This document shows positions 55,362 to 60,840 of a stretch of DNA of 64,000 nucleotides, piece after piece. The DNA comes from Escherichia phage vB_EcoM-RPN242. The stretch lies in sequence record OL656110.1; one strand, 5' to 3'. The position numbers and the translations under genes were made by a program. Below the pieces are notes generated by a model that saw nothing but the letters and a program-made list of their open reading frames with translations, was not told where the DNA came from and made no database searches. Every line of letters starts with the position of its first letter. The stretch's first letter is position 1.

Positions 55362-55435
55362 GGAGGGAGGTGATGTGAAGTAAAAAGTTTTAGCTCGGGC
55401 GAAATCTTACAAACTCGCGAGCCAATTCGGCCTGT

Positions 55436-55597
55436 TCAGCACTGATTGGTTCCCCATGGAAGTCCACCTGACCATTCTTCCAGCCGTGGATGAAACTCGG
55501 AGACTCTTCCCCAGATAGGACATACCCCTTCACGAGATTTCAAGTACCCCCGCACGACCTCTCCGTCGTCCAGTTTGTTCAGTTCTTCTAACGTCAT
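55436..55597 (-). CDS. small ORF (53 aa) coupled to primase, not in ORF track
   Basis: ATG 55597 overlaps primase stop (ATGA); own translation MTLEELNKLDDGEVVRGYLK... Confidence 0.25.
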   Translation of the reverse strand: MTLEELNKLDDGEVVRGYLKSREGVCPIWGRVSEFHPRLEEWSGGLPWGTNQC

Positions 55598-56652
55598 CGC
55601 ACTTTCCTCAGTTCAGCGAATTGTAATGATGCGGCCATACCTTGGTAAACGTTCTTGGCGATTAGCTTCAGGAGGTCTTGTATGGACATGTTGCCCTTTG
55701 ATGGCATGACCATGTCGTTGATATCCTTCCAAGGAACGTCTGGTGGGAACAGTACAACCTTGACACCTTTATCTATCATCTTCTGAATACCGTCACACAC
55801 CTGTGGGTTCCGGTACTGATTATCAGGGATATAAATGTCTCCCTTCACGCTCAGTAGATCAGCGTCGGCCGATGCAAGACAGTTGGGTAGGAACAGGCTG
55901 TCAATCGGACCTTCCACAACCAGCTTGGTCTTGTGAATGTTTACCCGGTCTTCACCATACACCTTAGTGTCTTCATCCTTGGGCTTGACTGTTGCGTAGC
56001 GCAGTGTCGCATTCTTGTCGAATGCACGCCCCTGAACGATCTTCATCCGCCCATCTTGCGTCCAGAATGGGATTACCAGGCGCTCGTCATCGGGAATTTT
56101 CAGTTGCTTCTCAGGGTTCGTTTCGAACTGGAGTAGATCCTGGCGGAAGTGTTGTGTGTAATACAGGAGGGACAAAGTGCTCTCCGGCAGTCCACGCCAC
56201 TGTACGTACTGTCGAGCCTTATGGTCAGGCGGTAGCAGATCAAGCCGTAGCATATTGCCGAGGAGGCTCTCGTCGCGTTTCGCCGCCACTGAGCCAATAC
56301 GGGCGGTCTGTGTCAGCTTTGGCAGCGGCTTCAGGGAAGGAAGTGGTCTGTCCGACGTATCACCCAGCAGACGGAACTTCTCCATGTTGTACTCTGTTGA
56401 GAGGCGTTCGTCGAACTTCTTCAGCCAGAACTCAAATGACCAGCCATTCATCTGGTTGCAGTTGTGGCATTTGAACCGGAAGCAGTCATGATCCCGATCA
56501 TAGAAGAAGTATCCACGGCGCTTGTTAGCAGACTTCGTGGAGTCACCACACAGGGGACAACGGAAGTTCGCAACAGAACCCACGCGCTCCCACTTGAACT
56601 TGTCAAGGCGGGGCGATACGTTGTTGATAAATTGCTCGTCAAGAAATTTCAT
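55594..56652 (-). CDS. 61: DNA primase (gp61-like)
   Basis: ATG 56652 gives 352 aa; zinc ribbon FRCPLCGDSTKSANKRRGYFFYDRDHDCFRFKCHNC parallels T4 gp61; TOPRIM-like VVEGPIDSLFL and ADADLL. Confidence 0.8.
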   Translation of the reverse strand: MKFLDEQFINNVSPRLDKFKWERVGSVANFRCPLCGDSTKSANKRRGYFFYDRDHDCFRFKCHNCNQMNGWSFEFWLKKFDERLSTEYNMEKFRLLGDTSDRPLPSLKPLPKLTQTARIGSVAAKRDESLLGNMLRLDLLPPDHKARQYVQWRGLPESTLSLLYYTQHFRQDLLQFETNPEKQLKIPDDERLVIPFWTQDGRMKIVQGRAFDKNATLRYATVKPKDEDTKVYGEDRVNIHKTKLVVEGPIDSLFLPNCLASADADLLSVKGDIYIPDNQYRNPQVCDGIQKMIDKGVKVVLFPPDVPWKDINDMVMPSKGNMSIQDLLKLIAKNVYQGMAASLQFAELRKVR

Positions 56653-57263
56653 TAGATCTTCGGCCTCTGGAACACTTCGGTCACAGTATAGTCTACACCA
56701 CGACTTTGAGCTATACACAGTTGACGCCAAGCCCCATACAGGATATTCTGCTCCCCGGCAGTGTTGCGCTCAAAGTGGGCGAAGCCGTCGAGGAGTTCCA
56801 TGTAGCTACGCATATGCCGGGTAACGGTTCTTCCTCTCTTGATCTGTTCATCAAGGTACTTCTGATAATGCTCTGGTGATGACAATGAAGAGTACTGCAT
56901 GTCTGGCACATGAACTGGCATCAGGGACTTGCGGGGTGTGAAGTAGAACAACCCCCACTTTGGTGGCAGGTCTTCAACCCTGATCACGTCCTGAGGGCAG
57001 ACATAAAAGCGGTATGCGCCCATCCCTGTTGTGGGGTCCATCCGATGGGGCTTCTTCTTGTCGGTAAGGAAATCAGAGCGAGACACCTTCACTTCCATCA
57101 GGATAGAGCAACCGCCGGAACGGAACCCGATGGCATCAGGTGATTCTTTGTTGTCAAACGAATTTGGCTCGATGAAGACAGCGCCGCAGTTCATGCGACC
57201 GCGCAGGTAGTTGGCCGCGATTTCACATCCTTCGCGGTGTGACGGGATAAAGATTTTGCTCAT
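56652..57263 (-). CDS. PD-(D/E)xK-family nuclease, putative
   Basis: ATG 57263; motif PDAIGFRSGGCSILMEVKVS (D ... E-x-K) typical of Hjc/RecB-like nucleases; TAATG overlap with primase start. Confidence 0.45.
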   Translation of the reverse strand: MSKIFIPSHREGCEIAANYLRGRMNCGAVFIEPNSFDNKESPDAIGFRSGGCSILMEVKVSRSDFLTDKKKPHRMDPTTGMGAYRFYVCPQDVIRVEDLPPKWGLFYFTPRKSLMPVHVPDMQYSSLSSPEHYQKYLDEQIKRGRTVTRHMRSYMELLDGFAHFERNTAGEQNILYGAWRQLCIAQSRGVDYTVTEVFQRPKI

Positions 57264-57319
57264 TGTCCTTTCCTTTCGGTGAATAATGAGCAAATTATAT
57301 GCCTTTATTTCGTATTGAC

Positions 57320-57673
57320 TTACGACAGCTGCTTCAGTTTGTAGATCGTCTGATAACACAGTGTCTTGATATCGTCAAGAGTGCTCTGAAGGTGGGAGTC
57401 ACACTGCTTGTAGATGCCATCGACGTCTATCACCACACTATTAATATAGGAGATAGGGTCTGGGTTGTACAATTTGATATTCTCGAATGATGGAACATAC
57501 TGACCACCCGCACCGATGTATGCTTCGGTAAACGTGTCCAGCAAGTCCTCTAGACCCCCGTAGAACTCCCCGAGTGCCTTGTGCTTGGCATAGGACGTTG
57601 TAACGAAGTGTAAGGCATGAGAGTGGGCTATAGCAAGCAGTCCACGGTTGATGAAAATACTCGCATTGACCAT
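57320..57673 (-). CDS. hypothetical protein
   Basis: ATG 57673 with SD GAGGAA (track start 57727 is GTG). Confidence 0.45.
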   Translation of the reverse strand: MVNASIFINRGLLAIAHSHALHFVTTSYAKHKALGEFYGGLEDLLDTFTEAYIGAGGQYVPSFENIKLYNPDPISYINSVVIDVDGIYKQCDSHLQSTLDDIKTLCYQTIYKLKQLS

Positions 57674-57685
57674 GATTTGTTTCCT

Positions 57686-57719
57686 CAGAAAAAGAAATCC
57701 CCCTGTATTTAGGGGGATT
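57686..57719 (-). terminator. rho-independent terminator
   Basis: 9-bp stem AATCCCCCT/AGGGGGATT, 6-nt loop, followed on minus strand by TTCTTTTTCTG. Confidence 0.55.
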
Positions 57720-58119: not shown

Positions 58120-60840
58120 TCAGATCTTAATCTGCATGTTGCCACCCAGGGACTGCTCGTACTCGCTGTATGCGCCTTCCCCGTAGTCTCGTGCCCACTG
58201 GTCAGACTGCTGGGCGCTATCCAGAGTCATCAGGTTTGGTTCAGTCGGGTTGTAACCCTTGGACTTCGCATCCCGGTACAGAGTCTGCAGGTACTGGTTG
58301 GCGCGGTCAATCTGAGATTTGAACTCGCGATATGCCCCTTCAGTTGTGTTGCGGCGGAAGGTGATATCCCAGTCCACGTTCAGAGTCTGACCATCACGGC
58401 TTGCATAGATCTGCCAATCCAGGTCGCGGCCTTTTGGTGCGTTGTCGCGGATGGAGTCGGCGTATGCCGCAAGGTCGGCACCAGTCTTCTTCGCAGTACT
58501 CGACTCTTTCTCCAGTCTCTCGGTTTCTTTGGACAGGATACCCAACATAAATTCATTAGTGCGGCGATCCGCCATGTCGTACCCGCGCCAAAGGACTGAA
58601 CCGTTGTTGTCAACAGAAATGTCGTCCAAAAATACTTGTTTCGGATTATACGACGTGCTTTTCAGAGTTTGTATATTCCGAGATATCATTTCCATTTTAG
58701 AAGAAATTTCATCGATCACGGCCTGAACAATATCTTTCTTCAAAGTAAGTTCATATGTCTTCGGATTGTTCAGGGTACGACCTTTATTGGATACAATAGG
58801 CGTGATCGCCACTTTGCCTTTGTCGTAGTAATAGGTCACATTCGTGGTCAATACAGCACCATCATACTTCCCAGTTTTCGGGAAATTGACGCCAGACCAA
58901 GTGATGGACATACCGTTGACAGTCTCACCAAACACCATGGCGTTGCTTGGTATATTCAGGGTTCCAGAGTTGACCAGATCAGCGCCTTGGGCATTCAGGT
59001 CGATAGAACCATAGATGGCCCCGGTAATACGATCTTTCAGCATCAGGGTCTTGTCGCCCTTCTCTGGGATGATTTCCAGCGGGTGCTTGCCACGCGGAGG
59101 TTCTTTGATGAGTTCCAGTAGAGCAGTTTTCCCTGGCTTCACACGATTCAGGACAGCGTCGGACACTGTCAGAGTCCAGTTTGCGGTTTCCACATAACCC
59201 CAGCCCCGAGAACGGCGAATGGCTTTGATAGGATATGGAGCGCTTGTTGGCACTGCGCTAATTTCCCATTTGCCAGTGTACTGGGTCTTGGCAACCTCAA
59301 AGATGGACGCAATTACCGCATTGGCGACGTCACGGGCGCTACCTTTGGCCACGTTCTCCTCTTCAGCAATTTCGCTGAAAACTGAGTATTGAACGAAACC
59401 AGCGAGGACGTTTGTGAAGTTGACAACGATAACCAACCCGCCTGCTGTCGTGTAACGACCAGCGCCCACACGACGGATGTTTTCACCAGGAAGAATAGAA
59501 GTGTCCAGCCCAACGTTGGTATCAATGATACCCAGAACACGAGCGATGAAACCACTGTTACGTAATTGATCAACACTGGTTGCACCCTCGGTCGAATCCG
59601 ATGCGGATTTAGACACTTTGTTCAACTTGATAGAGACAAGGGTTTCCCCGTTGACACCGATGATATCCCATTCAGTACCCTGCTCGTTCGAGATGCGAGC
59701 AGTCTTGCGCTTTGAATTGATGGCACCTTCGTAACGCCCGTTCTTGACTACAACAGAGGCTGTGGCAGCATCAGTAGCACTTGCTGCATTTGAAAAGTCT
59801 GGGTCAGAAATACTGATGTCGACGTCACCGTTTTGAGAACGCATGCGAACGCCGTTTTTGAATCGTTCCACGTTTACTTCTCGAGCACCAAGTCGTTTGG
59901 CATCAATAACAGCAGTTCCAGAACCGATAATGTTGGCTGGGTTATTTCTGTCTGAACTGTTTTGAGAACCTTTCCAAAATTTTGTGGACGCTGTGGTGAA
60001 ATCATTCAGGATACTGATAGGGACTTGTGGTAATTTCAACTGACGAGCAATGAAATCAGCACTTTGCCCACGCACAGGTTTCTCATTCATGTATGCGCCA
60101 ACATACACACCCGGCTCATTGTAGTGGGGAGCGATATTTGCCGTGTTCATGCGGCCTCTCTCCTTACCAGCCCATAACAACATGGGCTGATCTCCGTTTG
60201 AAGTTAATTTCCATCCGTTGGAATTATCAACAGAAGATGACACACCCACATCCGGAGTATTGTTCTGAACCGGAACGTCACCGACCTTGTCTGGATCATC
60301 CCAGGTGATACCCTGCATCTTCGGACCGTCGAATACCTGAGCCGGATCTTTACCCTTGCGGACCAGCCACACATAACCACGGTCAGGGACAGGCGCGTAG
60401 GTCAGGTCCATGACATTCAGTTTCTGTTTCAGGCCGGACTGGCGGATGATCTTAGGAATCAGGGTCATACCGCGATCCAGCGCTTTCTTCGAGAAGTTGA
60501 CAGCAAAGCCATCGATGGTTTTGCCCAGAGGAGTCGCCATGAATTGTTTGGTCGCTTCGATCATGGAAGCGATAACGCGCATTGGGTTCTTGAAGCGAGC
60601 GATGGCGTCAGGATAGACGGAGCCGCGCTTCTGGCCGATGAAAACCTGACGAACACTCTTACCCAGCCCCTGAGGGGTATAGAACTGAATACGGTATTCC
60701 TTTTCATCTTCGTCGACGAAGGTGAAGAACACATCGCCTGCGTTCTTCTTACCCATGGTCAGCTCATACGGAGCGGAGTTGAACGCTTCGTCCAACTGAT
60801 CTCTTTCCTGCATGAACTGGAGGAAACTTAGCTTTGACAT
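58120..60840 (-). CDS. large hypothetical protein (906 aa)
   Basis: long ORF with SD AGGAGA; no recognisable catalytic motif. Confidence 0.6.
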   Translation of the reverse strand: MSKLSFLQFMQERDQLDEAFNSAPYELTMGKKNAGDVFFTFVDEDEKEYRIQFYTPQGLGKSVRQVFIGQKRGSVYPDAIARFKNPMRVIASMIEATKQFMATPLGKTIDGFAVNFSKKALDRGMTLIPKIIRQSGLKQKLNVMDLTYAPVPDRGYVWLVRKGKDPAQVFDGPKMQGITWDDPDKVGDVPVQNNTPDVGVSSSVDNSNGWKLTSNGDQPMLLWAGKERGRMNTANIAPHYNEPGVYVGAYMNEKPVRGQSADFIARQLKLPQVPISILNDFTTASTKFWKGSQNSSDRNNPANIIGSGTAVIDAKRLGAREVNVERFKNGVRMRSQNGDVDISISDPDFSNAASATDAATASVVVKNGRYEGAINSKRKTARISNEQGTEWDIIGVNGETLVSIKLNKVSKSASDSTEGATSVDQLRNSGFIARVLGIIDTNVGLDTSILPGENIRRVGAGRYTTAGGLVIVVNFTNVLAGFVQYSVFSEIAEEENVAKGSARDVANAVIASIFEVAKTQYTGKWEISAVPTSAPYPIKAIRRSRGWGYVETANWTLTVSDAVLNRVKPGKTALLELIKEPPRGKHPLEIIPEKGDKTLMLKDRITGAIYGSIDLNAQGADLVNSGTLNIPSNAMVFGETVNGMSITWSGVNFPKTGKYDGAVLTTNVTYYYDKGKVAITPIVSNKGRTLNNPKTYELTLKKDIVQAVIDEISSKMEMISRNIQTLKSTSYNPKQVFLDDISVDNNGSVLWRGYDMADRRTNEFMLGILSKETERLEKESSTAKKTGADLAAYADSIRDNAPKGRDLDWQIYASRDGQTLNVDWDITFRRNTTEGAYREFKSQIDRANQYLQTLYRDAKSKGYNPTEPNLMTLDSAQQSDQWARDYGEGAYSEYEQSLGGNMQIKI

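Follow-up and report, generated by a model that had tools for sequence, protein, structure and literature searches.

Escherichia phage vB_EcoM-RPN242 carries, directly before its DNA primase gene, a small gene that may encode a nuclease. This locus raises two questions: what kind of protein is encoded, and whether the tight junction of the two genes means that their products function together. We analysed a window of 64,000 nucleotides of the phage DNA (OL656110.1), to which all positions refer. The gene occupies 56652-57263 of the minus strand, running from an ATG at 57263 to a TAA at 56654-56652, and encodes 203 amino acids. The program listing the open reading frames let the frame begin further upstream, with a GTG (57359). 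The homologues in our alignment all begin with MSKIF, MAKIF or MGKIF, and a putative Shine-Dalgarno sequence, GGAAAGGA, stands directly before the ATG (AGGAAAGGA at 57266-57274, minus strand). On these two sequence features, 57263 is taken as the start codon in preference to the GTG. The reading frame is real, since 52 close homologues conserve it and, in an exhaustive HMM search, E ≤ 1e-3 was reached by 7,104 clusters (50% identity) and E ≤ 1e-30 by 1,455 of them. Nothing supports the short plus-strand ORFs that lie opposite this gene. The region is 93-97% identical to phages of the genus Agtrevirus (Ackermannviridae), such as Salmonella phage vB_CECAV_050, Shigella phage Ag3 and SKML-39, and 270 phage records match it in all.

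The protein by itself gave no match to threshold in Pfam or NCBIfam, and none in Pfam even at E ≤ 1. A phmmer search of the PDB with the single sequence returned spurious matches only. Over its full length (residues 1-202) the protein matched PHROG 631, a family of unknown function (E 5.6e-78), and it matched PHROG 5429, called 'DNA repair protein', more weakly (E 2e-10). When an alignment of 40 homologues (A1) served as a profile against the PDB sequences, it found 3dnx, a structure of the MmcB family (DUF1052, PF06319), with an E-value of 1.6e-4. In this alignment D43 is opposite an Asp of MmcB, and EVKVSRSDF is opposite ECKSSRADF. Of the 40 relatives scanned singly, three touched PF06319 (best E 5.4e-4) and seven touched the Hjc family PF01870 (best E 0.012), all below threshold; the protein of the window does not reach the gathering threshold of PF06319 and gives no PF01870 match at all. 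A1 was also compared by hhalign with an alignment (A2) of twelve PF06319-carrying sequences, which had been recovered with a 49-aa fragment of 3dnx and two of which are named MmcB family. The probability was 96% with an E-value of 3.9e-9 over 57 columns, in the N-terminal half only, because the MmcB sequences in A2 are N-terminal fragments and the comparison covers that half alone.

The AlphaFold2 model built from A1 (pLDDT 92, pTM 0.88) consists, in its core, of a helix (9-22), three strands (28-31, 44-48 and 52-58), a helix (62-68) and a further strand (84-89). This alpha-beta-beta-beta-alpha-beta order is the canonical one of PD-(D/E)xK enzymes. Foldseek against the PDB again placed 3dnx at the top (probability 1.0, TM 0.39/0.53), with a modest E-value of 1.6e-3. 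Most of the next matches were PD-(D/E)xK proteins, namely NucS/EndoMS (2vld/5gke), Kpn2I, SfsA, Cas4 SSO0001 and BamHI, followed by Card1, McrC and lambda exonuclease; apart from that of 3dnx, their E-values were also modest. Against the predicted viral structures of BFVD there were 17 matches at E ≤ 1e-3, several of them named MmcB-like or MmcB family DNA repair protein. As judged from profiles and model, the protein has the PD-(D/E)xK fold and is a distant relative of MmcB/DUF1052. A preliminary description of this DNA was thus exact in its coordinates and in the motif PDAIGFRSGGCSILMEVKVS, and right to propose a PD-(D/E)xK nuclease fold, which the complete and conserved D...ExK site, the model, Foldseek and hhalign all support. 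The remote homology search that it recommended led to the MmcB family. It had also compared the core to those of the Hjc and RecB types. The likeness to Hjc holds, weakly, in the seven relatives noted above; the RecB type does not, as the only such match in the A1 search of the PDB was Cas4 (4ic1, E 0.18).

The motif PDAIGFRSGGCSILMEVKVS comprises residues 42-61. It lies in the predicted catalytic core, ESPDAIGFRSGGCSILMEVKVSRSDF (residues 40-65; 57069-57146, minus strand), which contains E40, D43, E57-x-K59 and an SRxDF segment of MmcB type and aligns with RVDV...ECKSSRADF of MmcB. In the model D43 opens strand 2 and E57-x-K59 closes strand 3. The MmcB signature D...E-C/V-K-S/x-S-R-x-D-F-x-x-D-x-K is present as a whole: the phage protein reads D43...E57-V-K-V-S-R-S-D-F-L-T-D-K-K-K, and MmcB reads D...E-C-K-S-S-R-A-D-F-x-S-D-x-K. 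We assessed conservation in 104 diverse representatives, which were the query and 103 of the best matches, with 29-42% identity to the query. E40, D43, E57, K59, D64, D68, K71, G82 and R85 were invariant in this set. At least 90% conservation was found for H9, E32, P42, G46, R62, F65, R74 and G80 and, on the C-terminal side, for L99, P100, W103, G104, L105 and E171. Helices 130-142 and 149-161 form an insertion restricted to Ackermannviridae-like members. The strict retention of the acidic/lysine constellation favours catalysis, which we predict from the invariant D...ExK site. The active site would be formed by D43 and E57-x-K59, helped by E40 and/or E32, and the SRxDF..D..K..R segment is basic and would probably bind DNA.

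At its 3' end the gene meets the primase gene (55594-56652, minus strand), which encodes a gp61-type (T4-like) DNA primase of 352 amino acids, identified by PHROG 47 'DNA primase' (E 5.5e-80) and by tblastn. The TAA of the nuclease and the ATG of the primase (56652-56650) share one base in TAATG (56650-56654, minus strand). The same or an equivalent overlap is seen in CBA120, in Taipeivirus and in relatives of the Serratia/Erwinia type, and across the genera of Ackermannviridae it takes the form TAATG, TGATG or ATGA. Such an overlap would allow ribosomes to re-initiate on the primase. By itself it is not unusual, since 23 of 49 same-strand junctions overlap, five of them by one base, in PQ306799, a 97%-identical relative whose junctions were counted by hand from the annotation table. 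Translational coupling may therefore reflect genome compaction only. The only Shine-Dalgarno-like element of the primase is GAGG at 56663-56666 (minus strand), within the Q-R-P codons of the nuclease and 11 nt before the primase ATG, which is a long spacing; it may act as the primase Shine-Dalgarno sequence. In relatives with an insert between the two genes, the primase gets a new and better-spaced one. No RNA structure sequestering the primase start was found, either in the single sequence (z = +0.46) or as consensus pairs in six genera. It is plausible from the sequence that the nuclease and primase genes are co-transcribed and probably translationally coupled. GAGG is kept in Agtrevirus, Kuttervirus and Taipeivirus, and it is replaced by CGACC or CGTCC in two other loci, L039 and L037, which keep the amino acids. 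We had considered whether the EVFQRP tail of the nuclease is a mere by-product of the primase Shine-Dalgarno sequence, and we discarded this idea because L039 and L037 retain the residues with codons that destroy GAGG.

Two other elements may belong to the same unit. A TATAAT element (57294-57299, minus strand), noticed by eye and by comparing relatives, stands about 30 nt before the nuclease ATG and is a candidate -10 box. The window, Ag3, LIMEstone1, CBA120 and Taipeivirus all keep it, and the intergenic sequence flanking it diverges. No good -35 box was found near it, and a sigma-70 scan called no promoter directly upstream of the nuclease. TATAAT may be a promoter element of the nuclease-primase unit, as its conservation suggests. 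A search of the literature for an Ackermannviridae transcriptome giving the timing of expression yielded nothing usable. At the other end, a small conserved ORF of PHROG 4460 (55391-55597, minus strand; 68 aa in relatives) overlaps the primase stop. In the window this ORF is frameshifted by a one-base insertion relative to three relatives. It is likely to be the last gene of the unit. The order of a DUF5856 gene, the nuclease, the primase and the 68-aa ORF is kept in Ag3, in CBA120 (Kuttervirus) and in a Taipeivirus, and the nuclease-primase pair forms a small DNA-metabolism islet amid late and structural genes.

How far this neighbourhood extends was seen in 79 IMG/VR loci encoding relatives of the nuclease, 18 of Ackermannviridae type (≥ 51% identity) and 61 distant. 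The primase is downstream of the nuclease in 18/18 loci of Ackermannviridae type, with overlapping stop and start codons in 14 and an insert of 150-660 nt in the other four. LIMEstone1 carries the homing endonuclease F-LimV as an insert exactly at TAATG, and vB_CECAV_050 has a 94-aa ORF between the two genes. The primase also comes next, after a gap of 5 nt, in Vibrio phage D533, whose nuclease is 36% identical. In Vibrio phage VP-1, a member of Ackermannviridae, the homologue (PHROG 631, E 1.8e-46) is followed by a DprA-like gene in place of the primase. Among the 61 distant loci, none has a gp61-type primase within 5 kb. In the record searches (tblastn for the primase), the numbers at ≥ 60% identity are nearly equal (269 for the nuclease and 281 for the primase), and both genes therefore seem to be part of the Ackermannviridae core. 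In total 2,388 phage records contain the primase; some 2,100 of these have < 60% identity, and those listed among the latter are from T4-like phages and cyanophages. The nuclease is found in 663 records only, from Ackermannviridae and from Vibrio, Stx-converting, P7-like and other mostly temperate phages; none of the T4-like phages and cyanophages listed for the primase appears among its matches, in lists that were not cross-matched record by record. The adjacency of nuclease and primase is lineage-specific.

Outside Ackermannviridae the nuclease has other neighbours. The family has no Pfam model and is mostly carried by phages and prophages; a chromosomal stand-alone homologue exists. Dereplication reduced the 61 distant loci to 34 groups, whose same-strand neighbours were then clustered. 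The commonest were DnaC-like loaders, DnaB helicases, and O-like and other replication-initiation proteins, together with primases of another type, DNA methyltransferases and RusA resolvases. Replication genes occur in 15 of the 34 groups when just the six most frequent neighbour clusters are counted. At least six of the 34 have a same-strand DNA methyltransferase no more than about 3 kb away, and most of these copies stop 15-34 nt before the nuclease homologue. The homologue of Stx2 phage 1717 belongs to the leftward early operon that also contains exo, bet and gam, and adjoins an Ea22-like gene; that of P7 sits in the hea operon. Across the family, the nuclease gene belongs to phage replication and recombination modules, and this is a robust observation. 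In Ackermannviridae, the annotation of PQ306799 includes a RuvC-like resolvase, SbcCD-like proteins, RNase H and exonucleases.

The preliminary description had read the overlap with the primase start as a sign of co-function at replication forks. In its strongest form, the nuclease would be a dedicated partner that binds the gp61-type primase or the primosome and acts at forks, for example by trimming primers or by cleaving stalled or branched forks. The gene order and the overlap, kept in at least five genera of Ackermannviridae, with the order recurring in D533, speak for this reading, and so does the position of the pair as an islet among late genes. However, the absence of the primase from all 61 distant loci, the DprA-like gene of VP-1 and the many T4-like phages and cyanophages listed for the primase but not for the nuclease are hard to reconcile with it. 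Homing-endonuclease or other ORFs split the two genes in 4/18 loci, LIMEstone1 and vB_CECAV_050, and such phages are viable. We therefore regard a dedicated partnership as unlikely, and co-function deduced from the overlap goes beyond the evidence. A resolvase or debranching enzyme of Hjc type, acting on Holliday junctions before packaging, would agree with the sub-threshold PF01870 matches of seven relatives and with the link of DUF1052 to archaeal Holliday-junction resolvases drawn by profile analysis (PMC1189080). The protein itself lacks such a match, and the role seems already filled, because a RuvC-like resolvase is annotated in PQ306799 and RusA-like resolvases adjoin distant homologues. 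Holliday-junction resolution was for this reason rejected as the main reading, and an enzyme of this type is very unlikely.

The nuclease might instead degrade the DNA of the host or of competitors, attacking unmodified DNA while base modification spares that of the phage. ViI-like Ackermannviridae contain hypermodified thymidine, which would give self-protection. In temperate phages an adjacent methyltransferase would protect in the same way, and methyltransferase families are among the commonest neighbours of distant homologues, mostly at the short upstream distances given above. The fold, moreover, is common to many restriction enzymes. Methyltransferases are anyway frequent in the replication and nin regions of temperate phages, however, and most distant loci have none adjacent. 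Chromosomal stand-alone homologues exist, the closest relative that has been characterised is a repair protein and not a restriction enzyme, and the PADLOC-DB defence models gave 0 families at E ≤ 1. This last result also bears on the anti-restriction role that had been offered as an alternative to co-function, to which nothing points. Methyltransferase adjacency is the sole hint of a possible modification-sensitive nuclease of host DNA, and we consider such a function improbable. If the modification-sensing reading were true, the methyltransferase-nuclease pairs of temperate phages would be an equivalent arrangement. That the Ackermannviridae branch is not concerned with generic repair, being either a primosome component made in a fixed ratio with gp61 primase and processing forks or primers, or a modification-sensing nuclease of host DNA, has a small chance of being correct. 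Finally, the protein could be a DNA-binding or regulatory protein that retains the fold without activity, as PD-(D/E)xK families that are non-catalytic or fused to HTH regulators are known (PMC3424549). Inactive lineages normally lose their catalytic sites, but here the full acidic/lysine constellation is invariant throughout the family, and an inactive protein is extremely unlikely.

Thus, it is likely that the gene encodes an active MmcB-like nuclease of the phage replication module, a reading that draws on sequence, model and analogy. The protein, which has the PD-(D/E)xK fold, would be a small DNA endonuclease that probably depends on metal, and its phage family and the bacterial DNA-repair protein MmcB are distant sisters. 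In Ackermannviridae, the nuclease, the gp61-type primase and the 68-aa ORF would form a compact unit, probably with its own TATAAT, in which ribosomes ending the nuclease may re-initiate on the primase with its poorly spaced GAGG. The nuclease would act on damaged or branched DNA arising from phage replication and recombination, as has been proposed for MmcB, and would not be an obligate partner of the primase. By this analogy, a structure- or lesion-specific endonuclease serving replication and recombination is the role that we judge most likely. The role of MmcB itself is only partly understood, and the word 'repair' is applied to the phage nuclease by analogy.

A small nuclease within a phage replication module is an expected type of gene, and this one belongs with the MmcB-like PD-(D/E)xK proteins. 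The label 'DNA repair protein' already comes from at least one annotation pipeline. Other records of homologues carry 'hypothetical protein' or, wrongly, 'adenylosuccinate synthase' or 'minor tail protein'; the latter is the mistaken RefSeq name of P7 Upf89.0. 'MmcB-like PD-(D/E)xK nuclease' would be a better annotation for Ackermannviridae, several of which serve as therapeutic or biocontrol phages, and for the homologues of Stx-converting and P1/P7-like phages. One biochemical study would inform thousands of phage genes (about 7,100 clusters) and could clarify the function of MmcB.

Several known systems resemble the nuclease in part. In common with Cas4/RecB-type nucleases (SSO0001, PDB 4ic1), it has the general PD-(D/E)xK fold and, locally, an ExK-SR-like motif. 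Unlike Cas4, its sequence shows no C-terminal cysteine cluster, and membership of the RecB/Cas4 group was rejected because the matches are marginal (E 0.18 by sequence, Foldseek probability 0.08). Like Hjc (PF01870), it is a minimal PD-(D/E)xK nuclease of similar size, to which relatives give weak sequence matches; it differs in that the protein itself has no PF01870 match and in that the phage lineage already has a RuvC-like resolvase. P7 Upf89.0 and gp06 of Stx2 phage 1717 have the same N-terminal core, with about 45% identity over residues 8-107, and lie in early operons with DNA-metabolism genes. These two proteins lack the C-terminal helical insert of Ackermannviridae, and their genes neighbour Ead/Ea22-like genes and exo-bet-gam, not a gp61 primase. 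DUF1052, with the structure 3dnx, is listed as one PD-(D/E)xK group and COG5482 as a phage-associated one (PMC3424549).

The closest of the known systems is MmcB/DUF1052 (PF06319), represented by 3dnx (Silicibacter pomeroyi SPO1766) and by MmcB of Caulobacter crescentus; 3dnx is the best match both by sequence profile and by structure. In a review, MmcB is reported to be a PD-(D/E)XK endonuclease on which resistance to mitomycin C and cisplatin depends, and it is proposed to work with translesion polymerases on crosslinks; SOS regulation and the mitomycin C/crosslink role are known only for the Caulobacter protein (PMC9578287). Both proteins are small (about 150-200 aa), have the same order of core elements and carry D...E-x-K followed at once by S-R-x-D-F..D..K. 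The phage protein stays below the Pfam threshold of PF06319, reads E40-x-P-D where MmcB has R-V-D, and possesses an invariant G-x-G-x-x-R-(F/Y)-Y, an LPxxWGL motif and a C-terminal helical extension bearing E171. MmcB is SOS-regulated, chromosomal and found mostly in alpha-proteobacteria, whereas the nuclease described here is carried by phages, in their replication modules.

The junction between the MmcB-like nuclease gene and the primase gene, at which the stop codon of the former overlaps the start codon of the latter (TAATG), is a recurrent insertion site. In LIMEstone1, the homing endonuclease F-LimV (PHROG 655; locus L003, 4152-4808) is placed precisely at TAATG, and the stop/start context of the nuclease gene is re-used. 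In vB_CECAV_050, the same junction holds a 94-aa ORF (PHROG 22447; locus L001, 7139-7423). In both of these cases, whose sequences were checked, the primase gene acquires a new Shine-Dalgarno sequence with better spacing. Inserts of approximately 150-660 nt between the two genes were also found in four of the 18 IMG/VR loci (L024, L028, L031 and L034).

The stop codon of the primase gene is overlapped by a 68-aa ORF (window 55391-55597, minus strand), which is assigned to PHROG 4460 in relatives. An extra single base is present near position 55530, where the window reads CGTGAAGGGG in place of the CGTGAGGGG or CGTGAAGGA of Ag3, vB_CECAV_050 and CBA120. This 1-base insertion breaks the 68-aa ORF into two ORFs in different frames (55436-55597 and 55390-55533). 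The frameshift reflects either an error of sequencing or assembly or a genuine pseudogene.

Upstream of the nuclease gene lies the DUF5856 gene (Pfam DUF5856, PHROG 858; window 57320-57673, minus strand). Its common annotations, 'starvation-inducible transcriptional regulator' and MobD.6, conflict with the record for its orthologue in LIMEstone1, ORF078, which is listed there as a structural protein confirmed in the virion. Between the DUF5856 gene and the gene upstream of it, a run of T residues follows a GC-rich hairpin (AATCCCCCTAAATACAGGGGGATT TCTTTTT; window 57696-57719, minus strand). Because the loop of this hairpin holds CTAAATAC, which is annotated in LIMEstone1 as the -10 box of a T4-like late promoter, a terminator and a late promoter seem to be overlaid on one another here. 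Farther upstream of the nuclease-primase module is a 906-aa ORF (window 58120-60840, minus strand), whose counterparts in close relatives differ in size or are split: vB_CECAV_050 has one of 3,075 nt, Ag3 has pieces of 1,722, 141 and 492 nt, and LIMEstone1 has pieces of 1,128 and 492 nt, where both products are confirmed structural proteins. This variation suggests that the 906-aa ORF is a mosaic or fast-changing structural gene.

Homologues of the nuclease carry various names. The homologue is labelled 'adenylosuccinate synthase' in Aeromonas phage phiARM81mr and Vibrio phage vB_VneS_J26; in Shigella phages ChubbyThor and Gloob, this name is among the features under a 2.6-kb match and is apparently the label of the homologue. 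P7 upf89.0 has the RefSeq name 'minor tail protein'. The names in the records behind phage matches H9, H14, H58, H72 and H61 look like propagated misannotations.

Distant homologues have other neighbours. In a 326-kb metagenomic contig (L004, 5871-8486), a distant homologue closes a set of three overlapping genes, of which the others encode an AAA ATPase of 549 aa and a protein of 166 aa. This set is located in an island of small ORFs without known function and may represent a different functional association. Several contigs that resemble temperate phages (L074, 4201-4968; L095, 8424-9359; and similar loci) have a gene for a DNA methyltransferase, either of PHROG 954 or of the Dam-like D12 class, whose end lies 15-34 nt upstream of the homologue, a pairing that resembles a restriction-modification system.
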